DNA from: Phycisphaerae bacterium
Lineage (GTDB): Bacteria; Planctomycetota; Phycisphaerae; WQYP01
Direction: 5' to 3'
Length of the DNA stretch: 64,000 bases
Assembly: GCA_035504095.1 (NCBI GenBank)
Contig: DATJSN010000001.1
Coordinates: forward strand, 54,519 to 118,518
In this document: in pieces, positions 7,921 to 63,204 of the stretch
How positions within the stretch are numbered: position 1 is the first letter of the stretch
Layout of the letters: each line of letters starts with the position of its first letter
The notes under the pieces: generated by a model
What the model was told of the DNA's origin: nothing
Seen by the model: only the letters and a program-made list of their open reading frames with translations
The model's database searches: none
Made by a program: the position numbers and the translations under genes

Positions 7921-8153
7921 CTGTTTTGTACGCCCATGTTACCATCAGGTCAACGCATATTTTATCGCTCTCCAATTTCCATGCGTTTTTGACCGATAGT
8001 GTAGTTATGAATTCCGGGCTATTACCTTGTACTTTGCACCCTGTTACCTGTTTTCTTAATAATATGCAACCACGGTTAAAACATTGCGTTATTACCATTA
8101 ACCAATGGAGGATCTGACACACCGAGTTCGAGAAATGGATGCCTTAAATTCAC

Positions 8154-22556: not shown

Positions 22557-22706
22557 AAAAGACTCTGCATCTACTATTTTCTCCACCGTCCTCTGAGCCC
22601 TCTGTGATCTCTGTGGCCTGTTCCTCATCGTGATATATAGCTATCGAGCAGGGGGGATAATAAGGCGGCAGGTCAATTAAAAATTTTTGCCATATAATCT
22701 TGTGCC

Positions 22707-27502: not shown

Positions 27503-28411
27503 TCATTGTGTCTTGACGCTGGTATCCGGACAAGTAAAGTCCAGATCGAAAATGACGGATACCCGATTGTCAGCCTTAATAAGACCAAAAAACGCGGAAG
27601 GCGGAATAATTCCATAGTCACTCATGAGTACGTCGAATTTCGACCAGACATAAAAATGCCCATAAACATCCCGTTGCACAAACATATTTGTCAAAAGTGA
27701 TCGTTGCACGCCGGCGAGGGTCAGTTTTCCTAAGACGAGCAAATCCAATTCCGGCCGGCCGTTGGCATCCCACTGGATTTGAGCCCGCTTTAGCTGTTCG
27801 AAGATATAATCGATGGCGGGATTCCGCTGAGCATTCAAGGCATCATGTAAATCGTGGTCACGAGCGGCGTTATCACTGCGCAAAGACACGACCGGCAATG
27901 ACAACGCACCGCTCGGCGGATCGTGCAACGTTGAGGTCGCTGGGAAATCGGCAGCAGCAATTGCAACCGATTTAGCGGCGTTGTTTCCCGCGGCGTCATC
28001 CTGGTTCGGAGCCTGAGGAAGATGATTGAACCAACTCTCGAGCTTAGAACCGGAAACAGCGAGGATCACCTGGCCCTGAACCTGGGTGCTGCGGCTATAC
28101 CATGAACCTATGGTCGCCGTGCCATTAAGTTCCACATAGCTGTCAGGACTTATCACAAAATGCAAAGGCGTTTTCTGGGCGTTGAAGTCGACCACCAACG
28201 GTTTGGAAACTTCCACCTGTGCACCCTGGGGTTGGGCGGGTGGATCGCTGCACGCCGGCAGTAACAGAGCGATCAACAGGCAGGGCAGACTCAGTCCGAA
28301 GGAGGCAAAACGTGGTTTACGTGGACGTTGTGGACAGCGGTGATTATCTGACGTGCAATCAACGCAAAACCGCGAATGACCGATTTCGGGCTGGAAAGTT
28401 CCTTGACTCAT
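27503..28411 (-). CDS. YceI-like domain lipoprotein
   Basis: Lipobox 'LLPAC'. 'RDHDLHDALNAQRNPAIDYIF' resembles the YceI core. Confidence 0.55.
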   Translation of the reverse strand: MSQGTFQPEIGHSRFCVDCTSDNHRCPQRPRKPRFASFGLSLPCLLIALLLPACSDPPAQPQGAQVEVSKPLVVDFNAQKTPLHFVISPDSYVELNGTATIGSWYSRSTQVQGQVILAVSGSKLESWFNHLPQAPNQDDAAGNNAAKSVAIAAADFPATSTLHDPPSGALSLPVVSLRSDNAARDHDLHDALNAQRNPAIDYIFEQLKRAQIQWDANGRPELDLLVLGKLTLAGVQRSLLTNMFVQRDVYGHFYVWSKFDVLMSDYGIIPPSAFFGLIKADNRVSVIFDLDFTCPDTSVKTQ

Positions 28412-29112
28412 TTTCCTGCATCAGATGCTGAAGTTGTCAGTTGCCAGGTCGCGGTCACGGTGATCGCGTCTCCGGATTTAATTATGCCTAACATCGCCGT
28501 TGGAGGCTGCACGCCAAAGTCAGTCATTTTCAGGTTGGCGCTGGTGCTAATGGTCAAACTAGTATTATCCTGATGTGTTATAGCAAGTTCCAGAGATGTT
28601 TTCTGCGCTACGCCATTAACCGTCAGATTGCCAGTGGTATCAAAAACAAAGACATTATTTTGGCCATTCGGGGCAGGTTTCAAGGTCGCTTTAGTCAGTT
28701 GATATGTAATCGTTGGATGCTGACTAGCATTCAGGGTGCCGTACATCGTGGAATCCATGCCCCCGCCTTCCGAGCTTTTGAGTGTGTAGACGGGGATGGT
28801 CAGTTGAATCGACTGCAGGCTTATGGGATTTGGGCCTGTGGTAGTCCATTCTCCCGACGTAGTCACATTGCCGCTGACTGTATTGCCCTGGGCGGACCAA
28901 TCGTGCAGTGTTGAGGTTCCTTTGATGGTGACATTGCCGGATGAAGCAGTGAATGTTGTGCCCTGCGGTGCGGACGCCGCAATCGAGGCAGCGCCCGCAA
29001 ATGTAATAACCAGGATAGCGAGTGCGGATACTCCAACTCCGCGCCAGGCCGCCACCTGACGGCCTGGCGAAGTAAGGAGGTGGTTGTGAAGAGCCTTAAA
29101 CAAGAAACACAT
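28408..29112 (-). CDS. YceI-like domain protein, secreted
   Basis: 'TIKGTSTLHDWSAQGNTVSGNV', 'MDSTMYGTLNASQHPTITYQL' and 'KMTDFGVQPP' resemble YceI family blocks. Overlaps the downstream YceI gene by 4 nt. Confidence 0.5.
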   Translation of the reverse strand: MCFLFKALHNHLLTSPGRQVAAWRGVGVSALAILVITFAGAASIAASAPQGTTFTASSGNVTIKGTSTLHDWSAQGNTVSGNVTTSGEWTTTGPNPISLQSIQLTIPVYTLKSSEGGGMDSTMYGTLNASQHPTITYQLTKATLKPAPNGQNNVFVFDTTGNLTVNGVAQKTSLELAITHQDNTSLTISTSANLKMTDFGVQPPTAMLGIIKSGDAITVTATWQLTTSASDAGK

Positions 29113-29125: not shown

Positions 29126-30787
29126 TTAAAAGCCGAAGGCGATCTCAGCAGTCACACCGCTGAAGCGTGGATTGTCGGAGGCGACAACACCGCTCACCAT
29201 ACCGGTGTCGGGGGCAAAGTTATAATACTGCTGATAGACGTACTCTACTTTGGTGAGAATACTCTTGGTCAGCCAGTAGCCGCCGCCAACCTGAACGCGT
29301 CCGACCCAGCCATTGGTGTCGACGCCATGAACAGCACCGGCATAAGCAAAACTATATTGTGCCGCCACATACAATGGAGCGGTGATATGGTAAGTCGCCA
29401 TGGCCTGCCCATAAAGCCACCGTTCGTCGTAGGCGGAGTCCTGGGTCCATCCGACATTTCCATACATTTCCCACGGCCAGTGGTTCCAGGTTATATCACC
29501 CTGATAAGCCTGAACATCGAGTCCGGCTTCAGGTGTGATCTGGCCGCCATCATCACCGGCATTGAAAATGCCGTTATAAGGTTCGCCACTGCGTGTGGAG
29601 GCATACAGATCCGTGATCTGATTATCGGTAGCGAGATCTTCGGCGTTAGCAGTGCCTCCGAGGTCGCAATAGTATACGGAAGCCGATAGCCGTAAATCAT
29701 TGCCGATATAGCCCCAAACTTTGCCGTGAACAGCAGGATTGCTGCCATAATCAAAGTAGCCGGTAGTAGTGCCGTTGCTAAATCCAGCCAGCCAGTATAT
29801 GGGACCTTTGACGGAGTAGAGTTCGAAACCGATTTGTTCTGCGCTGGGATCCACCACGGCGTTTCCAATCAATGGGTTAAGCTCAACGAAAGCGTTGTTC
29901 GACCGGTGGAAGTTTTGATCACCGAAGTCGATGTCAAATGCACCGGCTTTGAGATTGATATAGTTAAAGATATCTCCAATTGGACCGCCGGCGAAAGGAG
30001 GGGGCAATTGTTTAATGATCAAATAACCCTGGTCGCCATACGTCGTGCTGGGGTGCCCAACGCTGGATAGGTACAAATCGAAGAAGACATCCAATTTCCC
30101 GGGAATGGTTGCCAGAAAATCGAGATTGCCATAGGCCGTTTGGAAGCCCGGATCTAAACCAGGATACTCTACTGCGGGCATTGGAGGAGTGTGATAAGCG
30201 GCTTGCTGGGTGAGTGCCTGATAACGGCCGACGGTTTGCACGCCTATGTAAAATCGCATGTCCCCGAGCTGGCCTATCTGCATGTTCATATCAGGCCGAA
30301 TGTGTGAGGGATTCTGGTTTTCGAAAGGCGAAAAATAGTTGATGCCAGTTGGAGGAGTAAACATGTTCTGAAACGTCTCGGAAATGTTATTATCGGTAGG
30401 ATGTTCGGCAAGGTCCGCCGAAATCGTTTCGGAGTTGGACATGACCTCTTTGTAAATCGAATCAATGGCTTTGGCCTGGGCCTCGGCCGTGGCCTGAGCT
30501 GTGGCCTGGGATTCCGCTGTCGTGGCATTTTGCGTTTTTAGAACGGCGATCTGCTGTTCCAGGCTTGCCTCCGTAGCCTGGCTGGCGGCCTGGTCTTTTT
30601 TGAGAGCGGCCAACTGCTGCGCCATTGCCTGCATCTCGGCTTGTACTGCTGTGTTGCTGGTTGTTGTGGTGGTTGCGGCTGAAGTTGAGCTTGAATTTGC
30701 AGCGGCGGTATCGGCCCATAATGCCGGCACCGGCAAAGTTACGGCTGCAAGTGCGATACACATAGCCATTTTTTGTTTGAATGTCAT
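29126..30787 (-). CDS. Outer-membrane beta-barrel (porin-like) protein with an N-terminal coiled coil
   Basis: Signal peptide. Ala/Gln-rich heptad segment 'AVQAEMQAMAQQLAALKKDQAASQ...'. Gly/Tyr-rich alternating strands. C-terminal '...AEIAFGF' ends in Phe as in OMP beta-barrels. Confidence 0.5.
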   Translation of the reverse strand: MTFKQKMAMCIALAAVTLPVPALWADTAAANSSSTSAATTTTTSNTAVQAEMQAMAQQLAALKKDQAASQATEASLEQQIAVLKTQNATTAESQATAQATAEAQAKAIDSIYKEVMSNSETISADLAEHPTDNNISETFQNMFTPPTGINYFSPFENQNPSHIRPDMNMQIGQLGDMRFYIGVQTVGRYQALTQQAAYHTPPMPAVEYPGLDPGFQTAYGNLDFLATIPGKLDVFFDLYLSSVGHPSTTYGDQGYLIIKQLPPPFAGGPIGDIFNYINLKAGAFDIDFGDQNFHRSNNAFVELNPLIGNAVVDPSAEQIGFELYSVKGPIYWLAGFSNGTTTGYFDYGSNPAVHGKVWGYIGNDLRLSASVYYCDLGGTANAEDLATDNQITDLYASTRSGEPYNGIFNAGDDGGQITPEAGLDVQAYQGDITWNHWPWEMYGNVGWTQDSAYDERWLYGQAMATYHITAPLYVAAQYSFAYAGAVHGVDTNGWVGRVQVGGGYWLTKSILTKVEYVYQQYYNFAPDTGMVSGVVASDNPRFSGVTAEIAFGF

Positions 30788-34377: not shown

Positions 34378-34480
34378 TGAACAAATATTCGCGATATCAT
34401 AAAAACTATTTACGAAGATTTTGTCACACGTACCGGCCCGGAAACGACTAGTTTGCGGAGTCTTTGCTAAGGAGCCGGAT

Positions 34481-35956
34481 ATGACAACCATGCAACTGCC
34501 CAACACGCAAATAAGCGACGCCGAACTGGTGATCGGCTGCCGTAGCGGCAACCGTGAGGCCTTTGGCCATATTGTGCGGCGCTACCAAGGGATGGTCAGT
34601 GGGTTGATCTATGCCGACTGTGGGGACCTGGAACGCAGTGAAGATGTGGCTCAGGAAACGTTTATCTCTGCGTGGAGAAATCTGGGCGAACTCCGCGAAC
34701 CGGCGAAACTGGCCGGCTGGCTTTGTCGGATCGCACGAAACCGTCTGGTGGACCTGACACGAAATAACGCCCGCCATGAGGCTCTGATCGATCAAGTCGC
34801 GGAGCATCAGCGAACCACTACGGAGGCTTATCCGGAACAGGGCGTACTGTCGGATGAAGAAAAAGAATTGCTCTGGCGGACGCTTTCGGCGATTCCGCAG
34901 CCATATCGCGAAACACTGGTGCTCTATTACCGCCAGGGACAATCCACCGCCGAAGTGGCGGCGGCGACGCAGACAACGGAGATCACCGTTCGCCAGCGCT
35001 TGGGGCGCGGGCGGCAAATGCTGCGCGAACAGGTCAACGCCATGGTTGAACGGCAGATTTTGCGTTCGGCGCCGGGACCGGCATTTACGGTTGCGGTCGT
35101 GAGTGCATTGCCGGCGGCGATGGCTCCCACGGTAGCAGGCTTTGGCGCGGCGGCCAAAGGATCGGCGATGGCCAAGGGGACTAGCTGGCTTTTTTTACTG
35201 ACGGCGTGGATGGTTCCGATCCTGGCGCTTTTGACCATGGTCGCCGGAACGTGGCAAACCCTCCGCAACGCCAAGACGTCCGGATTGCGGCGGCTTTTCG
35301 GCTTCTGGTGGGTCATGATGTGGGTACTGGTCATAGGTTGGATAGTCGCATTCAACCTGCTGGTTGCACTGGGAGAATATCAGCATTGGAGTTACCAGGC
35401 TTTTGTAATCATGGAGTCGGCAATGGTCTGTCTTTACGGCGTGGCTGTTACCGGCCTGGCGGCGTGGCTTAAACTGGCCGCCCGAACCACATGGATAAGA
35501 GAAGGATTGCCCAATAATCCCGAACTGCTTCCAAGGCCGAAACTGGGATTCTGGATGCGGTTGCTGGTTTTCGCAGGTCCAACTGCGGCGGGTTTATCAT
35601 GGATGATTGAGATGGCGTTGCGAGCCGGAGACCATCTTTCGGCCGGCATTGTAGCAGCGGTCATCGGAGTCATTTGCCTGTTGAGCGCCTTTCAGAAGCG
35701 TGACCACAAGAAATGGCCCGATCCGGTACAGTCCATGGCGGGATATTTTTCATTGCTGGTTGTTGTGATGCTGGTGATGCTGAACTGGCGGTTGCGTATG
35801 TGGGTCGCAGGGCATGACGGCGTTTCCATCAGTCAGATACAGGGGGAGTTGCCGCTGTGGCCCATCAATTTATTTGCTGTTGTTTTGTTCGTCTGGATGG
35901 CGGCATTGATCAGGTTCACGAAGCGGCCGGGGCAGGAAGGAGGGAATAGGGAATAG
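34481..35956 (+). CDS. ECF (sigma-70 family) sigma factor fused to a C-terminal polytopic membrane domain
   Basis: RBS AAGGAG before the ATG. Region 2 'VAQETFISAWRNL'. Region 4 'STAEVAAATQTTEITVRQRLGRGRQML'. About 8 TM helices follow through the C-terminus. Confidence 0.7.
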   Translation: MTTMQLPNTQISDAELVIGCRSGNREAFGHIVRRYQGMVSGLIYADCGDLERSEDVAQETFISAWRNLGELREPAKLAGWLCRIARNRLVDLTRNNARHEALIDQVAEHQRTTTEAYPEQGVLSDEEKELLWRTLSAIPQPYRETLVLYYRQGQSTAEVAAATQTTEITVRQRLGRGRQMLREQVNAMVERQILRSAPGPAFTVAVVSALPAAMAPTVAGFGAAAKGSAMAKGTSWLFLLTAWMVPILALLTMVAGTWQTLRNAKTSGLRRLFGFWWVMMWVLVIGWIVAFNLLVALGEYQHWSYQAFVIMESAMVCLYGVAVTGLAAWLKLAARTTWIREGLPNNPELLPRPKLGFWMRLLVFAGPTAAGLSWMIEMALRAGDHLSAGIVAAVIGVICLLSAFQKRDHKKWPDPVQSMAGYFSLLVVVMLVMLNWRLRMWVAGHDGVSISQIQGELPLWPINLFAVVLFVWMAALIRFTKRPGQEGGNRE

Positions 35957-36035: not shown

Positions 36036-36071
36036 AAAAACCGCCGGGTACAACCCGGCGGTTTGTATTTT
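36036..36071. terminator. Bidirectional intrinsic terminator between the convergent ECF-sigma and rpsI genes
   Basis: Hairpin 'CCGCCGGGT-ACAA-CCCGGCGG' flanked by an A-run (5') and 'TTTGTATTTT' (3'). Confidence 0.6.
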
Positions 36072-36099: not shown

Positions 36100-36572
36100 T
36101 TAACGTTTGCTGAACTGGAAGGCACGGCGTGCGCCGCGGAGGCCGTACTTCTTGCGTTCCTTCATGCGGCTGTCGCGCGTCAGGCAGCCGGCTTCCTGCA
36201 ACGGCTTGCGCAACGCGGCGTCGTAAAGCGAAATCGCCCGGCCCATGCCCTGAACGATGGCGCCCGCTTGGCCGGTGTGGCCGCCGCCCTGAACGGTGAC
36301 GAAAATGTCGAATTTGCCGGCCATATTGGCCGCGGCAAGAGGTGCATTGACGTATTGGCGATCTTTGGCTTCGGTGAAAAATTTATCGACGTTGCGGTCA
36401 TTGATCAGAAATTTGCCTTCACCAGGCGTGATGCGAACCCGTGCGACCGATTTTTTGCGCCGGCCCGTGCCCCAGTAAAAGGTTTTTCCGCCGACACTCA
36501 CCACGCTGCGCCGGACGACGTTGGTTGCCGGCGTTTCGGCGGCGGGTGCGGAAGTGGTTGTTGATTCAATCA
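36100..36572 (-). CDS. rpsI: 30S ribosomal protein S9
   Basis: C-terminus '...KKYGLRGARRAFQFSKR' and 'GGGHTGQAGAIVQGMGRAI'. Confidence 0.9.
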
Positions 36573-36620
36573 TTAAAAAACCTCGCATATTCATCGGCCG
36601 CAATTTACAGGCCGATATGA

Positions 36621-37100
36621 TCAGAGCTGCAATGCCTCCGGTTGCTGGGCGGAATGGGGATGATCGGCATCGCGATAACATTTGAGTTTGGAGAGCATCT
36701 GCAGGCCCATCTTGGTTTTAGGCATCATACGACGGACTGCCATGCGAAAAAGTGTATTGGGATGATCGGCCAGAAAATCCCGCATCGATTTGACTTTGCG
36801 TCCGCCGGGATAATAGGTGTAGTAATCGTATTCGCGCTGGGCGAGTTTGCGTCCGGATACTTTTAATTTGCTGGTGTTGATCACCACGATGAAATCGCCG
36901 GTATCAACGGTGGGCGTGTAAATCGGCTTGTGCTTACCCATCAGGCGGACGGCCACAGCGCTGGCCAGACGGCCCAGAGTCTTATCGGCAGCGTCCACGA
37001 TGTACCAGCGATTATCGGTATGACCCACGCGGGCCAGCGTAGTGCGCCCGGCAGAACGGGCGATACGACGGGGAGGTTTAATGGTTGCAGTTGCGCTCAT
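36621..37100 (-). CDS. rplM: 50S ribosomal protein L13
   Basis: 'WYIVDAADKTLGRLASAVAVRLMGKHKPIYTPTVDTGDFIVVIN'. Confidence 0.9.
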   Translation of the reverse strand: MSATATIKPPRRIARSAGRTTLARVGHTDNRWYIVDAADKTLGRLASAVAVRLMGKHKPIYTPTVDTGDFIVVINTSKLKVSGRKLAQREYDYYTYYPGGRKVKSMRDFLADHPNTLFRMAVRRMMPKTKMGLQMLSKLKCYRDADHPHSAQQPEALQL

Positions 37101-37912: not shown

Positions 37913-40900
37913 TTATATCGACGGCTCGGCCCCGATGGTTCCCACCAAATGTTTGACATATTCCGGATCGCTCACCCGGGCAAATTGAGATTCGGCTTCG
38001 GCAAGCCTGGCTTGCATTTCCAAATGGCCGCTTCCACTTTCACTGCCCGATTCGTCGATAAAGGCCTGCACGCTTTGAATGTGCCGTTTCCATAGGGCAA
38101 TGTCGCGCTCTTGTTTGGTCTTCAGCCGGTCGTGATACCACTGGCTGCTGAGCAAATAATCACGGGTAAACATGGCGCGAATATCGGGGTGATGAACGTC
38201 TTTACCCTCATAATTGCCGTGGGCCATGATGTGCAAGAGCGCCTTGAGCGGAGGGCAGGCCGTTTCGACTGAACCATCCTCAAAATATCCCAAGGCCACG
38301 CGCTGCTGGGTTTGCACAATGTTCATAATGCCGTCGACATAAACATCCATACTTTGACTTTCAGGCTTGAGCATGGCCAAATCAAAAATGCGGGCTGGAT
38401 TGTCAAAAATTCGGCCGAGGAACGTACGCATGAACTTGGCAGTGATGCGATAGCCGAGACGGCTGGCGGGCACCGGACCGTCCTTGTAAAGAAAATCATG
38501 AAGCTTTTCCAAATGGCCATTGGTAATCAGAAATTCCGGCTCGCGTTCGTGAGGATGCAAACGGCACCATAGTTCCGGGATCAGCAGGCTGATGTCGTGA
38601 TCGACACGGCAATTCGGGCCGACATAACCAGCGGCGGTGGAAAATCCACCCAGACCAGTGAGTATGTAGCTGACCAGCGCGGCGTTGAGATCGGCGGTGG
38701 TTTGCAGGGCATTAAAGGGCCCTTTGGTCATGGCGCCTTCGCTGCCAGCGCCGGTGGTAGAAGGACTTTTTCCGGTGAGGCTGGAAATAAAATCCATGAA
38801 CAGTTCAGGCAATTCCTGGTAATGAATAGGGTTAAATACAGCCAGAGCACGTATGCCGGATTCGGGATCGGGCGGATTATTGCGCCGCCCTAGCAAAACT
38901 GCGTGAACAGGAAAGGCGATGGTGGTTGTCAACGGCAGCGCTCGCGCCAGGCGGACGCCTATCTGGGCGACATAAGTGTCGAGCGGTTTGGCCAGGTCGG
39001 TGCGGAATTGCAAATAGCGCGGATTTTTTGATGGCTTACCGCCAATAAGCCGGGGATGGGCGGACGAAACCACATAACCATCGCCGGCGTTGGCGGCCTG
39101 GGTGAGCAATTCTTTCATTGGAGGCGTGTAGCCGTCGAATTCGGTGATACGTCCGACAATTTCTCGTATTGCATGTGTGTCGAGCGGTTCGAAATTAGAG
39201 AGAAAGTTGTCTTTTTGCGCCAGGTCCGACTCGGTCTGCTTATCCAGGCCGGGGTGAATGGCGTCATCAGGGCGCTGGAAGAGCCGTTGTTCAACGTTGG
39301 TCACCAGCTTCAGGCTCGGTCCGGACAGGCCGAACGGTTTGGAATGGATCCAGGAAACCGGCAGGGTAACCGAAGCGGAGATGTCGTCTTCCATCTGGAT
39401 TTTGGCGGCCGGGAAAAAATCCTGGCGGACTTTAAACGTGCGCCACGCTCCATCGGGCAGCAGGCCGACGCGCAAATAGGTGCCGCCGACTTTACGGTTG
39501 TCCATCTTGAGTTCATGGCCCTGTTCGCCGTTGATGATGTCGACGGAAAAATGTTTGCGCCAGTCGTCGCCCCATTCCCGTTTGTAAAGGCGCTTGATCA
39601 GAAACACCAGCGCCAGAATGTCGCTGTGAATTGAACTGAGCCAGTGGTTGTACTCATCGGTGTAATCAGCAGTGGGGGTGAGCAGTTTGATCACGCTGCC
39701 CAGCGACCGCTCCAGACTCAAAATCGGACGGCTGGGTATTTGATCGTAATCGTGCGGCGCTTTGCCCGGTTTCCAACGAACGCTGTGATCTTTGAGCAGT
39801 ATTGCTTCAACCTGGTCCAGATCGTGCTGCAGATTCCCCACATAAATCGGGCCGTAGATCATGTAATCAGAAAGACTTTTGCTGATTTCGCTTTTGCCGC
39901 CGCCGCTGACCGTACATGGTTTGTGGCAGAAAACGCCTTCCGCGGAAGTTACAACGAGGCGAAAACGACCGGTTCCCGGATGCCGGCTCAGATAGACTTT
40001 CTGGCCGGACGGTGTCAGGTAAATATTGTCTGCCAGCAGGGGCAGGCTCTGCTCTTTGTCGTCGGTTTTCCATTGGATTTGCAGTGAGTGTAGATCCATG
40101 TGGGCGTCTTCGGGCAGATAAATAACATTGGGATGCAGTTTGTCCACGGCATAACCGGTGGGCGAAACGTCCATGATCGGGGCGTAGTCGCGAACCACAT
40201 CGGCAAAGGTCCGCCGATTCCAATATTTTTCATGCTGCACAAATTCATTGCCCAGGCTGTAGCTGGGATAGGCTACTGCGCCGCCGGCGTGTTCTTCTTC
40301 AGCGTTGCCCATCAGGTTGGCGGCAAAACTGATCTGAGTTTTAACTTCCTTTTTGCAATAACCGTAATAATTGTCAGCGATCAGGGTAACTATAACGCCC
40401 GCGGAACTGCGGCAGCAGACTTTGAACGCGGAGCCGCCGTTATATAGTTCATCCGGAGTTTTCCAGCACATGCCGTCGCGGCGCTGCCGCTCCGTGGCGT
40501 CTTTAAACTCTGGCAGGCCGAGTTGTTTTTTGGTCAGGCTGACCAGGTGCGGTGCCAGGATGACACAGCCCGTGTGCCCGGTCCAGTGATAAACGTCCAG
40601 GCCGGCGTCGTTTTCCGGCAATACAGGATCACCGGCGTTGCCGAAAATCGATTCGACAAAGTCCAGATTGCTTACGAGGCTGCCAGGTGCAAAGAAGCGG
40701 CACTCCATGGTTTTTTGCGGGCTGGTGGCGGGAATTTCCGGAACGACAATGGGCCGGAGCAATAATGAACAGAAAATTTCCACCGGGTGCGCGGCGTCGG
40801 CCGTATAGGGCAGCAATAAAAACTGGCGCGGTGGATTAACCGCGTGGCGGAACAAGGCTGCAAAAACGTGCGCGGAGACCGCGATTTTGTCCGCCGGAAC

Positions 40901-41362
40901 CGGCAGGCCGCAGTCCGCGATGTGGAACGTTCCCTGCGTGGTGCGCCGGTCGCTGCGCGGATTGTGCAATACGCCGTTGCGCACGCGATAACTTGTAAGC
41001 AGATTGCTTTCAAAATGATCACGACCTTCAGGAAATGAAAGCTCCCGTGACAGTCCCGGTTCATCGAGGCTCAGCGTGGACGACGGCAGGCGCAATGGTT
41101 CTCGAAGATTCAGTGGCGCAAATAATTCGGCGAGAAAGGTTTCGATGCGGCGGTCGGCCGGACAACGGTAATGGCGGAGCAGTAGGCTCTTCTGGCGGAA
41201 ATTAGCCAAAAGACCGGAGGCAAGATGTTCCAGTCCGTCGCCCTGAGTGTTTTGCTCATCGGATGTAAAACCGAGCGCCTGAAACTTCAGACGGATAAAG
41301 CGGTCGATGGCGGCGCGACCATTGGCGGCGGTGGGGCTTTTTTGAGTACCGACGTGCGACAT
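37913..41362 (-). CDS. Large (1149 aa) cytoplasmic protein of unknown function
   Basis: Uninterrupted 3.45 kb ORF. No signal peptide or TM segment. No motif I can assign. Co-directional with the methyltransferase and the S41 protease genes. Confidence 0.6.
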   Translation of the reverse strand: MSHVGTQKSPTAANGRAAIDRFIRLKFQALGFTSDEQNTQGDGLEHLASGLLANFRQKSLLLRHYRCPADRRIETFLAELFAPLNLREPLRLPSSTLSLDEPGLSRELSFPEGRDHFESNLLTSYRVRNGVLHNPRSDRRTTQGTFHIADCGLPVPADKIAVSAHVFAALFRHAVNPPRQFLLLPYTADAAHPVEIFCSLLLRPIVVPEIPATSPQKTMECRFFAPGSLVSNLDFVESIFGNAGDPVLPENDAGLDVYHWTGHTGCVILAPHLVSLTKKQLGLPEFKDATERQRRDGMCWKTPDELYNGGSAFKVCCRSSAGVIVTLIADNYYGYCKKEVKTQISFAANLMGNAEEEHAGGAVAYPSYSLGNEFVQHEKYWNRRTFADVVRDYAPIMDVSPTGYAVDKLHPNVIYLPEDAHMDLHSLQIQWKTDDKEQSLPLLADNIYLTPSGQKVYLSRHPGTGRFRLVVTSAEGVFCHKPCTVSGGGKSEISKSLSDYMIYGPIYVGNLQHDLDQVEAILLKDHSVRWKPGKAPHDYDQIPSRPILSLERSLGSVIKLLTPTADYTDEYNHWLSSIHSDILALVFLIKRLYKREWGDDWRKHFSVDIINGEQGHELKMDNRKVGGTYLRVGLLPDGAWRTFKVRQDFFPAAKIQMEDDISASVTLPVSWIHSKPFGLSGPSLKLVTNVEQRLFQRPDDAIHPGLDKQTESDLAQKDNFLSNFEPLDTHAIREIVGRITEFDGYTPPMKELLTQAANAGDGYVVSSAHPRLIGGKPSKNPRYLQFRTDLAKPLDTYVAQIGVRLARALPLTTTIAFPVHAVLLGRRNNPPDPESGIRALAVFNPIHYQELPELFMDFISSLTGKSPSTTGAGSEGAMTKGPFNALQTTADLNAALVSYILTGLGGFSTAAGYVGPNCRVDHDISLLIPELWCRLHPHEREPEFLITNGHLEKLHDFLYKDGPVPASRLGYRITAKFMRTFLGRIFDNPARIFDLAMLKPESQSMDVYVDGIMNIVQTQQRVALGYFEDGSVETACPPLKALLHIMAHGNYEGKDVHHPDIRAMFTRDYLLSSQWYHDRLKTKQERDIALWKRHIQSVQAFIDESGSESGSGHLEMQARLAEAESQFARVSDPEYVKHLVGTIGAEPSI

Positions 41363-41743: not shown

Positions 41744-44068
41744 TTAGTTCGAATCCGTTTGCACCAGTTGCAGGCGCATCAGCATTAAAGCAGTATCCAA
41801 CTGGGTATCGAACGTTTCCTCTCCCCCCGGACCGGTTGGCTGAGTTGCCGGCCGGGTGGTGGGAGCAGTATTTTTACCAGGAATAATGTCGTTGGCCAGC
41901 CAGGTTATCTCAAGACGATCCAATTGTCCCGGAGAAAACGGAACCCTGACATCCGGTTGCACGCCCCATTTAACGGCATAAGGCTGGCGTTGAATACTCT
42001 CGCCGTTGGGCAGGTAGTAGTTGGCCATGGTCAATTTCATCATGGCGGTTTGGTCATCGTCGAGGAAAATCTGGTTCTGTACGAGTCCCTTGCCGAAGCT
42101 CTGGTGACCGACGATCAGCGCGCGATGTAAATCGTGCATGGCGCCGCTGAAAATTTCCGAGGCGCTGGCACTGTTCTGATTGATCAGAAGAATCATCGGT
42201 ATATCGGGCGGCAAAACCGGCGCGCCGTCCGCGGATTGAACATCCAATGGGTCGCTGCGTCCGCGAGTGGACACGATGGTCCCTTCGGTGAGGAACATGT
42301 CACAGATGCGGATACAGGTTTCCAGTAAGCCGCCGGGATTATCCCGCAGGTCAATGATGATACCCCGAACGTGCTGTTGCATGAGCACGTCCAAAACCGA
42401 GAGCAATTCGTCCGCGGTGTCGCCCTGGAACTGTATGATGTGAATGTAGGCGATGCCATATTGGGGATCGATCATATAATTCCAGTCGTTGGTTGATGGA
42501 TCGCGGGAAATACCGGTTATGGAAACTTCGTGAATTTCGGCGCGTTTTAAAGGCATGATAATCAGATTGGGATTTGTACCCCGCCGGATACCCAGCGTAA
42601 CCATCGTGCCGGATTTACCGGTGATTTCATCGACCGCCTGGTCGACCGTGATGCCCAGAGTGCTTTTGCCATCCACGGTGGCGATGATGTCGCCGGGCTG
42701 AATGCCGGCTTCGTAAGCCGGCGAGCCGCTCAACGGGGTTACGACGGATAACCAGCCGTTGCGTATTTCGATCTGAATACCTACTCCGCTGAAACTTCCC
42801 TGAATCTGCTTCATGAACTCGGCCAATTCGCTGGGCCAGAAAACTTCGGAAAACGGATCCAGTTCGCTCATGGCGCCGTCGGTGAATTCCTTGACCAGAA
42901 CGATGACGGGAATATTCACCGTTTGCATGTCGCTGCGCACAAGACTCGTCCACATGTCGATAAGATCATTAGAGTTCATCGGTGTGGAAGATTCCGCCAC
43001 GGCGGTCTGGTTATCAATTTCGGCGAGAAATTGCGCGCGCTGCACGGGATCGTTAAGACCGCTGAAGCTGTCCGCCAAAGTGGGGGTGTTCACCAGCAGC
43101 CGCAAAGCGGTCAGGCCGCCGGTGGCCAGCTTGTTGTAACTAATCGCCTTGACGTAATAATCAAACGTTTGTTCGAGCGCCTCGAACATCATATCTTCGC
43201 GTATACCCTCGAGCGTGGTCTGCCATGTGGGGAAATTCGGCATTTGCGGATGAAAAGCATCCTGATAGTTCAGTGGTACATGCGACGCACCGATGGTAGC
43301 GGAAGGCTGGGAAGTCGGGGGCTTGTTACCCGGATGAACGGCGCTGGGTTGAGTGGACGGCTGAGTGGTTTGGGAAACGGACTGATCGAAGCTTTCCTGC
43401 ATCGCATAAAGCTGGGACGGCGTATATGTACTCAGCATGGTAATGCGGCTGGTGATCTGCTGAAGCTGATCGTGGAAACGCATGGAAATCGAGTAAATCG
43501 AGTTCAGAGTGTCATAAAGTTCAAACTCTTCGAGCCAATGTTGATTGGCATCATCGGAGGCGGCCTGGGCGGCTATTTTGTCCGTGATATCTTTTACCCA
43601 GAAAAGCTGCAAAAAGGCTGACTGATCCGGCGCCGCTTCATACGCGGCGTATAATTCCCCGGCAGCACCGATGTAATCATTCTTTTTGATGCTACCCTGG
43701 GCCGCCTGAGAGGCTTTGGTGAATAGTTTTTGCGCATCAGCAGCCTGCTGTTGCATCACCTGGACATATTCTTTTCGCCATTGATCGATCTGTGTTGTCA
43801 TCGGATCATCGCCCGGCGGGGGGGTAAGCGCTGCCAGGCCAACGATGTCCTGCATGCGGACCATTGAACCCACTTTTTCCAGGTAACCGGTCGCATTAAG
43901 CGTTGAATCCGGTGCGACGGACTGCGGGCTGGATACGGGCCATGCCGCGGAGGGAGCCAGGAGGCAGGCCACAAAAAAAACAATACCGGCTGAACTACGC
44001 AGGAGAAACGAACGAGAAATCATCAAAAACACCAATCCGGAAAGAACCAGGTAAAGCACAGATGGCAC
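41744..44068 (-). CDS. Carboxyl-terminal (tail-specific) protease, S41 family, with a PDZ domain and a long N-terminal extension
   Basis: PDZ 'SPAYEAGIQPGDIIATVDGKS'. S41 core 'IIDLRDNPGGL'. Catalytic Ser in 'NQNSASASEIF' and Lys in 'SFGKGLVQ'. Confidence 0.8.
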   Translation of the reverse strand: MPSVLYLVLSGLVFLMISRSFLLRSSAGIVFFVACLLAPSAAWPVSSPQSVAPDSTLNATGYLEKVGSMVRMQDIVGLAALTPPPGDDPMTTQIDQWRKEYVQVMQQQAADAQKLFTKASQAAQGSIKKNDYIGAAGELYAAYEAAPDQSAFLQLFWVKDITDKIAAQAASDDANQHWLEEFELYDTLNSIYSISMRFHDQLQQITSRITMLSTYTPSQLYAMQESFDQSVSQTTQPSTQPSAVHPGNKPPTSQPSATIGASHVPLNYQDAFHPQMPNFPTWQTTLEGIREDMMFEALEQTFDYYVKAISYNKLATGGLTALRLLVNTPTLADSFSGLNDPVQRAQFLAEIDNQTAVAESSTPMNSNDLIDMWTSLVRSDMQTVNIPVIVLVKEFTDGAMSELDPFSEVFWPSELAEFMKQIQGSFSGVGIQIEIRNGWLSVVTPLSGSPAYEAGIQPGDIIATVDGKSTLGITVDQAVDEITGKSGTMVTLGIRRGTNPNLIIMPLKRAEIHEVSITGISRDPSTNDWNYMIDPQYGIAYIHIIQFQGDTADELLSVLDVLMQQHVRGIIIDLRDNPGGLLETCIRICDMFLTEGTIVSTRGRSDPLDVQSADGAPVLPPDIPMILLINQNSASASEIFSGAMHDLHRALIVGHQSFGKGLVQNQIFLDDDQTAMMKLTMANYYLPNGESIQRQPYAVKWGVQPDVRVPFSPGQLDRLEITWLANDIIPGKNTAPTTRPATQPTGPGGEETFDTQLDTALMLMRLQLVQTDSN

Positions 44069-44129: not shown

Positions 44130-45491
44130 TCATGGCAACTCATTTGAATCAACCTTCGACGCAGCCGTTTTTCCCCGATGGCCGCGCACCAACAGGCGTA
44201 TCGGGATTTCCTTTAGTATAGTTCGCTGGCGAAGCTGCCGGATGAAAAACCGGCGGTATTCCTCAGTAATAAGCCGCGGATGGTTTACAAACAGCACGAT
44301 GGTCGGCGGGTTAATGTCGATCTGCGTGGCATAGTAAACCTTGACCATTTTTCCTTCCGCGTTGCTGGGACCACGCTGCCGGAGAATCTCTTCCACCGCT
44401 TGATTGAGCTGGCCGGTGCTCAGCCGCGTCGAAGCCTGCTGATGCAGGCCGAACGCCAGCCGTACGGTTTCGGCCACATTTTGGTCGTTTTTGGCGCTCA
44501 TAAACGTCATGGGAACGTAATCCAGGTTGGGAAATATCTTTTCTATGTACCGGCTGTATTGGCTCGGTTCGGCGGATGAGCCGACTAGGTCCCATTTATT
44601 GATGACGATCAATACGGGTTTAAACTCCGCCGTGATATAGGCCGCGAGTTTTTTATCCACGTCGCCGGATTCAGTAACGGCGTCGATCATCAGCAACACC
44701 ACGTTCGCCCGCCGGATGGAACGCTGCGCGCGATGAAAACTGTAAAATTCGATATCGGCGGCCCGCATGCGCGATTTTTTTCTTACGCCTGCGGTGTCGA
44801 TGACCACAATTGTTTTTCCGTCAAATTCCACGTGCACGTCGACGCTGTCGCGCGTTGTACCGGGAGTTTCAGAAACAATCACGCGCCGGCTGCCCGCAAG
44901 GGCATTAATCAACGTGCTTTTGCCGGCGTTGCGCCGTCCCACAACGGCGAGTTTAAGTTCCGGTTCGGTTGCCGCCTCAATCTGAGCCAGTGCGCCCAGA
45001 TTGGCCGCAATCGCATCGAGCAATTCCTGTTTACCACGATTCTGGGTGCACGAAACGTTGATTCCTTCGCCAAAACCCAGGGGAAAGAAATCCGCCTCCA
45101 GTGTTTTCATCGATGCAGAATCAATTTTATTGATGATCAACAGCACTGGTTTAGAGCTCTGGCGTAGGAGACGGGCGACTTCGGTATCCAATGCCACAAG
45201 GCCGCTGCGCGCATCGACTACGAATAAAAGCAAGTTCGCTGATTCGATGGCCTGGCGTATCTGGTCTTCGATTTCTCCGGTCAGATTATCCGGGTCTTTA
45301 ATTCCATAGCCGCCTGTATCGGTGAGTTCAAACCAGACGCCGTCGTGCTCGATCGGGGTGGATATGCGGTCACGCGTTACACCCGCGGTGGGATCAACGA
45401 TGGATATGCGCCGGCCCGCGAGGAAATTGAGCAAGCTCGACTTGCCCACATTGGGGCGGCCGACGATAGCAACATTGGGCGGATGGTTCAT
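44130..45491 (-). CDS. der: Ribosome-biogenesis GTPase Der (EngA)
   Basis: Two G-domains ('GRPNVGKSSL', 'GRRNAGKSTL') and a C-terminal KH-like domain. Confidence 0.9.
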   Translation of the reverse strand: MNHPPNVAIVGRPNVGKSSLLNFLAGRRISIVDPTAGVTRDRISTPIEHDGVWFELTDTGGYGIKDPDNLTGEIEDQIRQAIESANLLLFVVDARSGLVALDTEVARLLRQSSKPVLLIINKIDSASMKTLEADFFPLGFGEGINVSCTQNRGKQELLDAIAANLGALAQIEAATEPELKLAVVGRRNAGKSTLINALAGSRRVIVSETPGTTRDSVDVHVEFDGKTIVVIDTAGVRKKSRMRAADIEFYSFHRAQRSIRRANVVLLMIDAVTESGDVDKKLAAYITAEFKPVLIVINKWDLVGSSAEPSQYSRYIEKIFPNLDYVPMTFMSAKNDQNVAETVRLAFGLHQQASTRLSTGQLNQAVEEILRQRGPSNAEGKMVKVYYATQIDINPPTIVLFVNHPRLITEEYRRFFIRQLRQRTILKEIPIRLLVRGHRGKTAASKVDSNELP

Positions 45492-45512: not shown

Positions 45513-48500
45513 TCAGGCGTTTTTTCCGCAGCATTGTTTGTATTTTTTGCCGCTGCCGCATGGGCAGGGATCGTTGCGGCCGACTTTGGGATCGGTGTTC
45601 TGAATCGGGGCGGCTTTATCCGGGACGTTCTGGGTATTGCCGCCGCCGCGTTGTGTTTGGCCGTCCTGTCCTGATGCCGTGGCGGCATCGACGCCATACG
45701 ACTGGCGTACGTCAAACCGCGCCCGCTGATTGGCATAAACATTACGCATCTGTTCAACCGAGGCGACCTTGATGCGGAAAATCACTTCCGTCACCCGTTC
45801 GCGCAGTGCCTTGAGAAATTCATTAAAAAGCCGCGACCCTTCGCGCTTGTATTCAATGATCGGATCGCGCTGGGCAATGCCCCTTAAGCCGATTGTGCCG
45901 CGGAGCTGATCCATGGCATACAGGTGATCTTTCCATGTGACGTCGAATATCTGCAGCAGCACCGATCTTTCCAGTTCGGTTAATTCCTTGCGCAAAAACG
46001 AATGCGCCAGTTCCGAAATGCGTTCGCGCCGTTCGGCGCCGTCTTCGCCTTCAAATTCATCCGGCGGGGCGATGGTCACGAACCTTTGGCTCACCCAGGC
46101 TGCGAGCGTTTTGGATTCCGGGAATTTTTCGACAGCTTCATCGATCTGCTTATCGATGGTTTCCGTTATATTGCGAGAGGCGTCCACAAGCATGGCGCGC
46201 AATTTGTCCGGCGGTGTGGCGCGAACCTGTTCGCCGGTCAGCGAAACCGCAAATTTTGCGCGAATCCATGCCGCGAACTGCTCGGAGGCGTAAACATTTT
46301 CAATGCCGCCGGCTCCCATGGTGGCTTGGATGGCGTAGTCGACCGGATATTCGATCTCGCGTTTCTGATAAGTCTTTCGGGCCAGGGCCAGAATCAGATC
46401 CACGGCCTGGTCCTGCGTTTTGCCGGCAAGGTCCTGTGCGGTGATGGGAATGGTGAATTTTTCCACGGCCCACCGGGCAAGTTCCTGTTCGGCATAGTTT
46501 TTGACAAGATATTTACTAAGCGGTGAAAAATCTTTTTGATCGATCTGATCCAGCGCTTTTTCCACCAGAGTATCCGCGATATGTTCGCGATCGAGCTTCT
46601 TGAGCTGGGCCTGACTGATCTGCACACGAAACTGGCTCATAACCCAGGCGGACAATCCCGCGTAGTCCCAATCCTCAGGGTCGGCGTCGGGATCCATAAA
46701 CTCCGATATCGAAATGTGGATATTGCCGCGAGCTTCCTCGCGAGCCTTGTTTTTGATCGTCATTTCCAACACCGCCAGTTCCGCATCGCGCAGTTCGGAC
46801 GGATCGATCGGCGTGTTCATATTGGTTCGAATCCATTCGCTGATGCAGGTTGGAACGTAGTCGCGATTGAGGTAAATGGACACAGCGTCGCGTACGGCGT
46901 CTTCAATGATTTCAAAAATTACCTGCTGCAGATTGCGTCCTTCCAGAATGGTCTGACGGACCGTGTAAAAATAACGCCGTTGGTGTTCGCGGATTTCGTC
47001 GTATTCCAACAGGCTTTTGCGAATGCCGAAGTTTCGTTCTTCGACTTTTTTCTGCGCCCGCTTGACGGTGCGCGACACCAGACCGTGTTCAATGGGTTCG
47101 TTTTCCTTTACGCCGAGGCGCTGCATCGCCCGCAGCATAAAGTCGCTGGCGAAAAGCTTCATCAAGTCATCTTCAAGGCTCAGGAAAAACCGCGACTTGC
47201 CCGGGTCGCCTTGCCGCCCGGATCGTCCGCGCAACTGATTGTCGATGCGCCGCGCTTCATGACGCTCGGTGCCCAGCACGAATAACCCGCCGGCTTCGAT
47301 GACACCCGGTCCCAGAGTGATATCCGTTCCGCGCCCGGCCATGTTGGTCGCAATGGTGACTGCACCGACGGTTTTGCTGAGTTTATCGACGTATTGGCGG
47401 CCCGCTTTGGCAATGATTTCCGCCTCGCGTTCGTGGTTTTTGGCGTTGAGCACCTCATGCTCAATTCCATAACGACGCGTAAGCATGTTGGAAAGCCGTT
47501 CGGATTTTTCCACACTGGTGGTGCCCACCAGAACGGGCTGGCCTTTTTCAGAAACTTCATGGATGGTTTCCAGAATGCTTTCCCACTTGGCGCGTTCGGT
47601 CATGTAAATCAGGTCGTCGAAATCCTGGCGAACCACCGGACGATTGGTTGGAATAGTTACAACTTCAAGGTTGTAAATCTTCTGGAATTCCTCCGCCTCG
47701 GTCATGGCCGTGCCGGTCATGCCCGCCAGCTTGGCGTAAAGTTTGAAGAAATTCTGAATGGTGATGGTGGCGATCGTCTGCGTTTCGGGTTTGACGCGTA
47801 CGCGTTCTTTGGCTTCGGTCGCCTGATGCAAACCTTCGCTCCATTGGCGGCCCACCATTAAACGGCCGGTGAATTCATCCACGATAATTACTTCGCCGTT
47901 TTGCACCACGTAATCGCGGTCTTTTTCGTAGACCACGTGGGCGCGCAGGCTTTGTTCCAGGAGGTGCGGCCAGTCCATGTTACTGCCGATATAAAACGAA
48001 CCCACGCCGGCAAATTCCTGCGCCATTTTTATTCCTTCGTGGGTTAATTGGACGGATTTTCGATCGAGTTCAACTTCGTACAACTGGACCTGAGTCGCGA
48101 GGTGTTGCTCGGCCTTTTGCAATTCCGGCTGGGTGTCGGCAATCAGCTTCTGAAGCCTGGTGATTTTTTCCTGATCGCCGCGCGAGTTTTTAATATCGCC
48201 TTCGGAACCTTTGATGATCCGCTGCAACTGCTCTACACGTTCGTTGGCCTGATCCCAGGGCTTCTGGGCTGCAATAAGTTTGCGGGCAACTTCGTCGGCG
48301 GCGCGATAGCGCGGAGAGTCGTCGTGGGCCGGGCCGCTGATGATCAGGGGTGTGCGGGCTTCGTCGATGAGAATGCTGTCCACTTCATCGACGATCGCAT
48401 AGTGCAAAGGGCTTTGCACTTGTTCCTGTATGCTTTGCTTCATGTTGTCGCGGAGATAATCAAACCCAAATTCGCTTGCGGTACCATAGGTGACATTACA

Positions 48501-49211
48501 CTGATAGGCGACTTTTCGCGGTGCGTTGTCCATCTGCGCCTGGATAAACCCGACGGAAATTCCCAGGCTATATAACGCCGGCGCAACCCAGGCGGCGTCG
48601 CGTCGGACGAGATAGTCATTGACCGTTACCACGTGACAATGCCTGCCCCTTAACGCCATCAGGCAGCAGGCCAGCGCGGCGACAAATGTTTTGCCTTCGC
48701 CGGTGGCCATTTCGGCGATTTTGCCGTCATAAAGCACCATGCCACCGATAAGCTGCACGTCGAAGGGGCGCGCCCGGTAGGGCGGCCGAGAGTCCGGAAC
48801 GACAAGGCGGATGGCTTCATAAAGTTCCGGCGGCACTTCCACGAATCGCCAATCGTGTTCCTTGACGCATTTAGCCTTCGCCTGTTTAAATAATTCCTGC
48901 CCCGCCGGACTCAATTTTTCCACGTCAAAGGGTAAAGCGGGATTCAGGGCGTTTCTGAGTCCGATCTGCCGATCCATCGCTTCTCGCATCAGTGCAAACG
49001 CTTCAGGCAAAACCGCCGAGTCGTTTTCGCCATCCGCAAGCCGTTTGCGGAGTTCATCCGCTTTCTGTCGCATTTGTACATCAGTCATGGACCGGATTTG
49101 CGGCTCGAGTTTGTTGATCAGCTCGACCTGACGGTTGTAGGTTTTGATCAGGCGTTCATTTCGGGAGCCGAAGATCGCCGCGAGTGTTTTATTGAAAATA
49201 GTCGCAACCAT
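45513..49211 (-). CDS. secA: Preprotein translocase ATPase SecA (long form, 1232 aa)
   Basis: '[12 protein letters not shown]' N-terminus. DEAD-like motor motifs ('MATGEGKT', '[21 protein letters not shown]', '[10 protein letters not shown]'). C-terminal zinc finger '[14 protein letters not shown]'. Confidence 0.95.
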   Translation of the reverse strand: [1232 protein letters not shown]

Positions 49212-49293: not shown

Positions 49294-49761
49294 TCAGATT
49301 GTTGAGGCTTGAGGCGGGGGAATTTGGGAGAATTGACGCAACAGGGCCAGCAGGCGTAACTGGCCTCCGGAAAGTGTTTCGCTCGAGATCAGTTTTATTT
49401 GATTGTTTCCAATCGGCTGGTGGGAAAATTGAATAATTAATTCAGTATGGTCCAGACACACCGGCGTTCCCGCGAACTGCCAACAGAGCGCTGCAAGTCG
49501 CCACGCCGTACTCGTGCTTTGATCGGTTTGAACCGCGCATGTGGCGGGTGCTTGAGTTTCCAAAGAAGCGGGTTGGCAAGGGACGGCTTTTTCCACCGGC
49601 GTTGCAATATCAGTAAGCAGATTGCAGATGCGCTCGGCGTGAGCCTGAATGATCTTGGGCGAACTTTGACCAAGGGCCTGAAAACTGAGCACGGCCAGAA
49701 GACATGAAAAAATCTTCCAGATTCGGTGTGGTTCATGATGCGATTTTTGTTCTGTTTTCAC
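49294..49761 (-). CDS. Secreted hypothetical protein
   Basis: Signal peptide 'IFSCLLAVLSFQALG'. Several Cys residues. No known motif. Confidence 0.35.
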   Translation of the reverse strand: MKTEQKSHHEPHRIWKIFSCLLAVLSFQALGQSSPKIIQAHAERICNLLTDIATPVEKAVPCQPASLETQAPATCAVQTDQSTSTAWRLAALCWQFAGTPVCLDHTELIIQFSHQPIGNNQIKLISSETLSGGQLRLLALLRQFSQIPPPQASTI

Positions 49762-49881: not shown

Positions 49882-51039
49882 CTATGTCAGTTCTCGATTC
49901 CGGAACATCGCAATGGCCAGGCTCAATGCCGCGCCAATATAGAAAAGACCGTACAAGCATGTCGTGGCGACATATTGCACAACTTGGCCGATCGTCGGTG
50001 CACCATCAATTTCGGCGCCGGGAAAACTTAAATCGCGGTAAACCAGGCACTGATTCAGATCGAAATTGCTCAGGTAGGGCAGTAAATAAGCGGCGTTCTG
50101 GGCTACGGTTTGCCAGGGGGATCCCAAATCAAGAAGCGATACGAAACGTGTCAGATTCGCGCAGATGTAGAGCAGCACAATCACGGTCATGTTCAATGCC
50201 AGGCCGTATCTTGTGGCGATGGCGGTACTGATTGCCGCCAGTGTCGCCAGTTCCATGAACTGCAGAATAAACGCGGGAATCATAGCGATGACAAAATGGT
50301 CGCTGGCGAGATAAATCGCCTGACGTCCGAGAGTATCCGACACTTCCAAATCGATGCGCATGTCGTAGAAATTACGCAGCCAGGAGCAGGCCATGGCGAT
50401 AATGGTGGCGATGGCCATGGTAAAAAAGATCAGGCAGAGAATGCCCAGATATTTGCCGATAATCACCTGCCAGCGGGCAAGCGGCTTGCTCATCAGCGTT
50501 AGCATGGTGCGATTTTCTATTTCTTCATCGATCACTTTGCCCGTTGCGAAGACCATAATGATCAGAATGAACATAAGGATGTAGGACAAAGCGATGTCCC
50601 GGAACATCTTGTTTTCATCACTGCCCTCGAAGGTATTAAATGGAACAAAAGCAGTGACTATGATCGCCGTTACACAGAGAAAAAACACGATCAACGTAAA
50701 TGGCTGCAGGAGTCCTTCATGATAGGTTACGCGCATCAACGCGCCGATACGGCTTAGACTCAGCAGAGGCAGAATCACAAATTCCATGAGACCGAAAACC
50801 GCTGTGCAGCAGGTGGCGGCAAGAAAAACCGCCGCCCAGTCCCGGACTGAGTTGGCTTCGTCGGCAATATTGTTGGCATAAATGGCGCTATTACCCTTGT
50901 TGCCGGAACTCGCCTGGGCGGCGCCACTGGCAATCTGTGTTGCATAGTTGTCCAGGTTTATACGCCATTGGATCATAATGACCGTCAGAACGATAAGAAC
51001 ACCCAGAGTGATAAGGTATGAGAGGGTCGATTTACTCAC
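49882..51039 (-). CDS. ABC-2-type permease-like polytopic membrane protein
   Basis: N-terminal TM helix, a large loop, then 5 TM helices, which is the ABC-2/GldF/NosY-like topology. No cognate ATPase gene lies next to it in the window. Confidence 0.4.
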   Translation of the reverse strand: MSKSTLSYLITLGVLIVLTVIMIQWRINLDNYATQIASGAAQASSGNKGNSAIYANNIADEANSVRDWAAVFLAATCCTAVFGLMEFVILPLLSLSRIGALMRVTYHEGLLQPFTLIVFFLCVTAIIVTAFVPFNTFEGSDENKMFRDIALSYILMFILIIMVFATGKVIDEEIENRTMLTLMSKPLARWQVIIGKYLGILCLIFFTMAIATIIAMACSWLRNFYDMRIDLEVSDTLGRQAIYLASDHFVIAMIPAFILQFMELATLAAISTAIATRYGLALNMTVIVLLYICANLTRFVSLLDLGSPWQTVAQNAAYLLPYLSNFDLNQCLVYRDLSFPGAEIDGAPTIGQVVQYVATTCLYGLFYIGAALSLAIAMFRNRELT

Positions 51040-51062: not shown

Positions 51063-51338
51063 CTACCAGCCGATTCTCAGCGGGGGTTTTAATCCTTCCG
51101 GTGTTTGGGTTTGTTGTTTTTCATCAACGATATACCCTGAAAAATACTGCCTGATGGCGGCCAGTAGTGATTGAATATCGGCTTTAGAGCCTTCTGCTAT
51201 TAACTCAACCCGTCCGTCAGCCAAGTTTCGCACCGTCCCGCCAAGTGCGTATTCCCGGGCCAATTCCACCGTGGTCTGGCGAAATCCTACCCCCTGTACC
51301 CGCCCAGTGTACAAGACCAGTTTCCGTTCCACATCCAT
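51063..51338 (-). CDS. acyP: Acylphosphatase
   Basis: 'VLYTGRVQGVGFRQ' and 'GTVRNLADGRVEL' signatures. Confidence 0.8.
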   Translation of the reverse strand: MDVERKLVLYTGRVQGVGFRQTTVELAREYALGGTVRNLADGRVELIAEGSKADIQSLLAAIRQYFSGYIVDEKQQTQTPEGLKPPLRIGW

Positions 51339-53397: not shown

Positions 53398-53673
53398 AGC
53401 GCTTAAACCTCATGTTAAACCAAGAAAACCGGGCTGCCCTCTCTCAGCGGCTCCTATAATGGACATCCCGTCCCCCTACGCGTTTGTCGAAAAAATTAGC
53501 AGAACTTGATTGTCTCGGCAAGTAGACTCAGAAAGTTCGCTATTTATTCATTTATTGGTTGTGATGCTGATTTATGTAAACCGGCTGAGAAAACCCCGGC
53601 GTAGCTTTGCCACGCTGCGCTCAACCGGCTATTATTAACACTCTGATTTTTGTTCGCACGGAGTAGTCAGGCT

Positions 53674-60560: not shown

Positions 60561-60575
60561 AAAAATTTCCGTTGA

Positions 60576-63083: not shown

Positions 63084-63204
63084 TTCACCACAGAGAACAC
63101 CGAGGTGTCACAGAGGTTCACAGAGAATGGTTATTCTAATATAAATTAGGAATATATTTCTTTGAGTCTCTGTATTTACTCCGTGTCCCCAGTGTACGCT
63201 GTGG

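Follow-up and report, generated by a model that had tools for sequence, protein, structure and literature searches.

The open reading frame (ORF) at 37913-41362 on the minus strand of a 64-kb stretch of DNA from a Phycisphaerae bacterium (contig DATJSN010000001.1; the whole stretch is called the window) very probably encodes a functional pyrophosphate (PPi)-dependent phosphoenolpyruvate (PEP) carboxykinase (PEPCK; PEP carboxytransphosphorylase, EC 4.1.1.38), as judged from its sequence and a predicted structure. The genes for PPi-dependent PEPCK (PPi-PEPCK) were identified in 2015. A first-pass annotation made from the sequence alone had described the product as a protein with no assignable motifs or family, possibly novel, and had mentioned its size of about 1150 residues as a hint of a PPi-PEPCK. 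The hint was correct by both sequence and fold. The suggested novelty was refuted by full-length matches with E = 0, by template modelling (TM) scores of 0.83-0.86 against solved structures, and by PF26300 in public pre-computed annotation. The family is already known, the exact sequence is already public, and there is nothing new in this gene.

The family of the protein was determined by sequence comparison. In a phmmer search of the PDB, residues 16-1147 of the window protein aligned with residues 6-1128 of the 1131-residue chain 8e1u_A ('PPi-dependent PEPCK'; E = 0, 1150.7 bits), and residues 20-1149 aligned with residues 17-1152 of the 1153-residue chain 6k31_A ('AiPEPCK'; E = 0, 1126.7 bits). 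When the C-terminal 255 residues were searched separately against the PDB, the match reached the extreme C-terminus of both chains. More than 8000 homologues were present in a large protein collection, and the 120 matches listed all had E = 0, which excludes a chance ORF. The closest listed homologue was 100% identical and bears the NCBI name 'MAG TPA: hypothetical protein VMG59_00390 [Phycisphaerae bacterium]'. The JGI name 'phosphoenolpyruvate carboxykinase (diphosphate)' was found on an 83%-identical relative (P0002) and on several other homologues. Public pre-computed annotation assigns PF26300 (PEPCK_PPi_lobe_2) to the exact window protein and to each of the 120 homologues listed. When 1.84 billion representatives at 50% identity were searched exhaustively with phmmer, 2429 proteins were found at E <= 1e-3, many of them fragments, and 680 at E <= 1e-30. 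About 20 full-length representatives (about 1150 residues) were among the 150 listed matches, with local identity down to 32%. These results place the protein in the PPi-PEPCK family.

A structure prediction with a fold search, a profile search and an alignment with the Propionibacterium PPi-PEPCK had been suggested with the first-pass annotation. An AlphaFold2 monomer model was built from a 51-sequence alignment and had a mean predicted local distance difference test score (pLDDT) of 81.8 and a predicted TM score of 0.82. A Foldseek search of the PDB with this model gave 31 matches at E < 0.01, every one of them a PEPCK, and the remainder was noise (E > 2). The eight chains of 8E1U and the two of 6K31 were all matched over about 1146 columns with TM scores of 0.83-0.86 and 46-48% identity. 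Ranks 11-31 were exclusively ATP- or GTP-dependent PEPCKs (E from 1e-6 to 2e-3, target-normalised TM score 0.48-0.64, identity 8-10%). In the model, the whole chain of about 1150 residues has the PPi-PEPCK fold, and the catalytic core shows a remote relationship to the nucleotide-dependent PEPCKs. The core of the Actinomyces israelii structure is likewise described as remotely related to these enzymes (Chiba et al. 2019, summarized in PMC10441589). The pLDDT fell below 50 at residues 486-489 and 863-873 (window 39895-39906 and 38746-38776, respectively), and these lowest-confidence parts coincided with two Gly-rich loops that rank among the best conserved of the family. The model suggests that both segments are mobile active-site loops, similar to the P-loop and lid of the nucleotide-dependent PEPCKs.

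We then compared the window protein with the known PEPCKs. The Propionibacterium freudenreichii PPi-PEPCK (8E1U; EC 4.1.1.38), whose PDB title describes it as a malate complex, is colinear with the window protein along its full length (1131 versus 1149 residues; TM score 0.83-0.85). Both proteins contain DRRTT, NY(Y/F)GYCKKE, EEEH, SGGGKSE, EDDI, FQRPDD, NPRYLQ, and TGKSPSTTGAGSEGA. The hosts differ, Actinomycetota for 8E1U and Planctomycetota/Phycisphaerae for the window protein, and about half of the residues are unlike. The A. israelii enzyme (6K31, AiPEPCK) has 48% identity and a TM score of 0.83-0.86, and differs by small indels around residues 400-420 and 740-760; it also comes from another phylum, with about half of its residues unlike. 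The solved PPi-PEPCKs are reported to bind malate and to be homodimers, the dimer being described by Chiba et al. 2019 (cited in PMC10441589). The ATP-PEPCK of Escherichia coli (PckA, 2PXZ) and the GTP-PEPCK of Mycobacterium tuberculosis (4WIE) have the catalytic-core fold in common with the window protein. They catalyze the same overall reaction except for the phosphoryl donor, and the putative active-site motifs are found in the same order and spacing. However, the window protein shows only 8-10% identity to them, is twice as long, carries extra lobes, and has a replaced nucleotide-binding region. Neither Pfam (PEPCK_ATP, PEPCK_GTP) nor NCBIfam gave a match to the ATP- or GTP-PEPCK families at E <= 1. 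The window protein is not a member of either family.

Conservation was examined in an alignment of the window protein with 16 full-length or near-full-length representatives (n = 17), which are 28-55% identical to it. The window protein kept all 39 invariant columns of this alignment, 38 of which are informative, the initial Met (M1) being trivial. Most of the motifs that contain invariant residues are listed in Table 1 with their positions; E691 and H922 were invariant outside these motifs. In the stretch TGKSPSTTGAGSEGA-TKGPFN, the residues S866, E875, T879, K880, and F883 were invariant. The loop at residues 863-884 may serve as a mobile active-site lid, as judged from the model. Every Gly-rich loop and charged motif of the window protein had its match in the PDB alignments with 8E1U and 6K31. 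The first-pass annotation had found no nucleotide-binding loop. In this study, a P-loop-like segment, TVSGGGKSEISKS, was found at residues 484-496, and we propose from its sequence that the SGGGKSE loop within it binds PPi or phosphate.

The E. coli pck sequence was then compared with the window protein motif by motif. Y-x-G-x-x-KK, a His about 20 residues further on, SxxGK[ST], DD, and NxR occurred in the same order and with near-identical spacing in both proteins (Table 1). PDB titles list the PckA mutants Y207F, G209S, K212I, K254S, and D269N, which identifies these positions as studied active-site residues. R65 of PckA, which we take to be the substrate-binding Arg, would correspond to R140. 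The metal-ligand role of H358 is presumed from general knowledge of ATP- and GTP-PEPCKs.

The ORF itself was unbroken; it starts with ATG and runs for 1149 codons up to a stop. Its coordinates and its rank as the second-longest ORF of the window, after secA, were confirmed, and its strand was identified as minus. The GC content of the ORF (0.54) was equal to that of its flanks. The N-terminus was hydrophilic and the 19-residue Kyte-Doolittle mean peaked at 1.45. Since the N-terminus is not hydrophobic and this maximum is 1.45, a cytoplasmic location is plausible, in agreement with the earlier statement that there is no signal peptide or transmembrane segment. The protein had also been called rich in His, Cys, and Trp in places. 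Both peptides quoted for this were located, HWTGHTGC at residue 259 and CWKTPDELYNGGSAFKVCC at residue 299, but with 1.2% Cys, 1.1% Trp, and 3.9% His the protein as a whole is not markedly rich in Cys or Trp. A metal cluster was considered for these peptides and rejected, as the cysteines were not kept family-wide in the 17-sequence alignment and the overall Cys content was low.

PPi-PEPCK interconverts oxaloacetate and PPi with PEP, CO2, and inorganic phosphate (Pi) and requires divalent cations (PMC8100219). The window enzyme would catalyze PEP + CO2 + Pi <-> oxaloacetate + PPi on a PEPCK-type catalytic core enlarged by family-specific lobes. In the proposed mechanism, the C3/C4 acid would be held by R140 and the Y332/K337/K338 cluster, and the catalytic divalent metal by K338, H358, and D660. 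The SGGGKSE loop (K490, S491) would bind PPi or Pi where the nucleotide phosphates would otherwise sit, and N780/R782 would bind the phosphate of PEP. The enzyme family is scattered in bacteria and protists, often alongside ATP- or GTP-PEPCK (PMC8100219), and genome descriptions of cultured Planctomycetes routinely tabulate EC 4.1.1.38 together with ppdK and pfp (PMC7716917). PPi-PEPCK kinetically favors the carboxylation direction (McLeod & Holyoak 2023, cited in PMC12547629). Because the characterized members show this preference, the most likely role in vivo would be anaplerotic formation of oxaloacetate, with the PEP phosphoryl bond conserved as PPi.

Several observations weigh against this assignment. 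An hmmscan of the 1149-residue protein against a local Pfam-A copy and NCBIfam r20 at E <= 1 returned zero families. The null Pfam-A result is most likely a gap in library content, as the local copy apparently was without PF26300, and not a sign of novelty; the empty profile searches are presumably the reason that the protein looks unassignable. The profile search was thus null in the local libraries and positive in the public pre-computed annotation. No enzymology of this protein or of a planctomycete orthologue was found in the literature. The genes of the 64-kb window included no PPDK, PPi-PFK, H+-PPase, MDH, or fumarase, and without such a partner of the PPi economy the physiological direction can only be inferred. 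When the family profile was compared with E. coli PckA by hhalign, only 14 residues were aligned (483-496 versus 247-FGLSGTGKTTLSTD-260; E 0.048, probability 1.1%), and this match was not significant alone. The mapping of residues to roles in ATP-PEPCK thus draws on order, spacing, conservation, and general knowledge of PEPCKs.

We examined whether other explanations could account for these data. The protein could be a true PPi-PEPCK homologue whose function has diverged, using another phosphoryl donor or acceptor, having lost regulation by malate, or being non-catalytic. We consider this improbable. Its identity to the characterized enzymes is only 46-48%, no assay of a planctomycete member was found, and the Cys pattern of the Phycisphaerae-like clade is unlike that of the wider family: C266, C299, and C317 were invariant in the 51-sequence alignment and not in the 17-sequence one. 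However, all family-wide invariant residues are kept, 8E1U and 6K31 share all the Gly-rich loops and charged motifs, and the family is compact, with strong conservation (mean column identity of 60% among 51 relatives). There is likewise only a slim chance that the Phycisphaerae-type enzymes are a subgroup of PPi-PEPCK that has shifted in function, differing in regulation, in metal or redox sensitivity via the clade-specific conserved cysteines C266/C299/C317, or in the preferred phosphoryl donor. If this were true, the enzyme would be the main CO2-fixing, PPi-generating step that feeds a PPi-based glycolysis in these bacteria.

A fusion of two genes through faulty assembly or annotation, as had been raised with the first-pass annotation, is excluded as the origin of the long ORF; nothing beyond the unusual length speaks for it. 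Single crystallized chains are colinear with the window protein from residue 16-20 to the C-terminus, three contigs that come from different sources and were assembled independently encode the identical 1149-residue protein, and many full-length representatives of about 1150 residues are known, down to 28% identity. The original headline, an orphan without known relatives that would stand for a new family, is the least credible reading and is likewise excluded. The empty local profile searches and the NCBI label 'hypothetical protein' speak for it, but the searches most simply reflect a library gap, and PDB matches, PF26300, and Foldseek give an unambiguous assignment of family and fold.

The assignment of the gene as a PPi-PEPCK exposes an annotation gap, made up of the NCBI label, the NCBIfam null result, and the absence of the family from older Pfam releases. 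Metabolic reconstructions from metagenome-assembled genomes of Phycisphaerae would miss the link between PEP and oxaloacetate and a source or sink of PPi unless the enzyme is assigned by hand. The scientific weight is low, as two crystal structures are known and the enzyme is already listed for cultured Planctomycetes; the value lies in annotation repair.

Next, the neighborhood of the gene was examined (Table 1). The methyltransferase, S41 protease, der, and secA genes are co-directional with the PEPCK gene, as previously noted, and all lie on the minus strand. The NCBIfam matches of the methyltransferase were all under their cut-offs; it is probably co-transcribed with the PEPCK gene and not functionally linked to it. 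The small ORF upstream had no Pfam or NCBIfam family; a relative (L004) has an ORF in the corresponding place (5647-5889), and the two are 75% identical. The strong hairpin lies directly past rpsI, with a convergent sigma-70-family gene (34421-35956, plus strand) on its other side; it is probably a bidirectional terminator, and likely marks the end of the minus-strand transcription unit or units. The gene order recurred in the 83%-identical relative, with a gap of about 850 nt before the methyltransferase, and the relatives at 66% and 62% identity had wholly different PEPCK neighbors. No partner in PPi or C4-acid metabolism was found in the PEPCK neighborhoods of the three relatives. An operon partner for the PEPCK was considered and rejected, as synteny was confined to the 83%-identical relative and no such partner was present in the window or the three relatives. 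The PEPCK is a stand-alone housekeeping gene, and its neighborhood is a lineage-specific gene order and not a functional operon. A promoter scan found 5 candidates versus 5.6 expected from shuffled sequence, and no promoter is claimed. A scan of the whole 64 kb on both strands at the Rfam gathering thresholds found no RNA family (no tRNA, riboswitch, or leader).

Table 1. Predicted PPi-PEPCK gene, its neighbors, and the conserved motifs of its product. Positions are those of the window; invariance refers to the 17-sequence alignment.
Feature	Position	Strand	Remarks	Proposed counterpart in E. coli PckA
Acylphosphatase	51063-51338	-		
ABC-2 permease	49882-51039	-		
Hypothetical protein	49294-49761	-		
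secA	45513-49211	-	1232 residues	
der	44130-45491	-		
S41 peptidase with PDZ domain	41744-44023	-		
Small hydrophobic ORF, 74 residues	41452-41676	-	Ends 89 nt upstream of the PEPCK start	
PPi-PEPCK (predicted), 1149 residues	37913-41362	-	EC 4.1.1.38 family	
DRRTT, residues 138-142	40937-40951	-	R140, T142 invariant	R65 for R140 (motif order)
DNYYGYCKKE, residues 330-339	40346-40375	-	Y332, G334, K337, K338 invariant	Y207-G-G209-E-M-K212-K213 for Y332-Y-G334-Y-C-K337-K338 (same spacing)
EEEHAGG, residues 355-361	40280-40300	-	H358 invariant; proposed metal ligand	H232 (19 after K213) for H358 (20 after K338)
P-loop-like (kinase-1a-like) CTVSGGGKSEISKS, residues 483-496	39875-39916	-	S486, G489, K490, E492 invariant, also in the 51-sequence alignment	S250-G-T-G-K254-T255 for S486-G-G-G-K490-S491
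EDDI, residues 658-661	39380-39391	-	D659, D660 invariant; proposed metal ligand	D268-D269 for D659-D660
FQRPDD, residues 695-700	39263-39280	-	R697, D699 invariant	
NPRYLQ, residues 780-785	39008-39025	-	N780, R782 invariant	N331-T-R333 for N780-P-R782 (same N-x-R spacing)
TGKSPSTTGAGSEGAMTKGPFN, residues 863-884	38711-38776	-	The family's longest Gly-rich loop with high conservation	
Class I S-adenosylmethionine-dependent methyltransferase (UbiE/Methyltransf_11-like), 228 residues	37205-37891	-	21 nt past the PEPCK stop	
rplM	36621-37100	-	PF00572	
rpsI	36100-36573	-	PF00380	
Terminator-like hairpin	36038-36064	both	Perfect 12-bp stem, GC-rich, T-runs on both strands	

Other features were observed elsewhere in the window. 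The GC content was 0.435 over 22001-24000, compared with about 0.50-0.51 in the adjoining blocks (region 21903-24236, plus strand). This dip spans ORFs of 217 and 509 residues without a convincing Pfam or NCBIfam family, with a LigT-like phosphoesterase on one side and a GH92 glycosidase on the other, and the region may be acquired DNA. A 553-residue ORF at 29126-30787 (minus strand) had no Pfam or NCBIfam family and lies directly upstream of two YceI-family genes (27503-29112, minus strand). At 53650-54978 on the plus strand lies a solitary gene resembling NuoH (NADH dehydrogenase subunit 1/H, PF00146) with no adjacent complex I genes, flanked by a squalene-hopene cyclase gene (51400-53397, minus strand) and a class II aminoacyl-tRNA synthetase gene (55075-56628, plus strand). 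Three successive genes at 58461-63942 (minus strand) encode Glyco_transf_41 (O-GlcNAc-transferase-like) domains, two of them with long tetratricopeptide repeat arrays; the third (63205-63942) resembles a catalytic-domain-only fragment or a short paralogue. In the thymidylate kinase ORF at 7205-8122 (minus strand), the Pfam domain begins at residue 96, and the roughly 95 residues before it are either an extension of the N-terminus or the result of a start called too far upstream.

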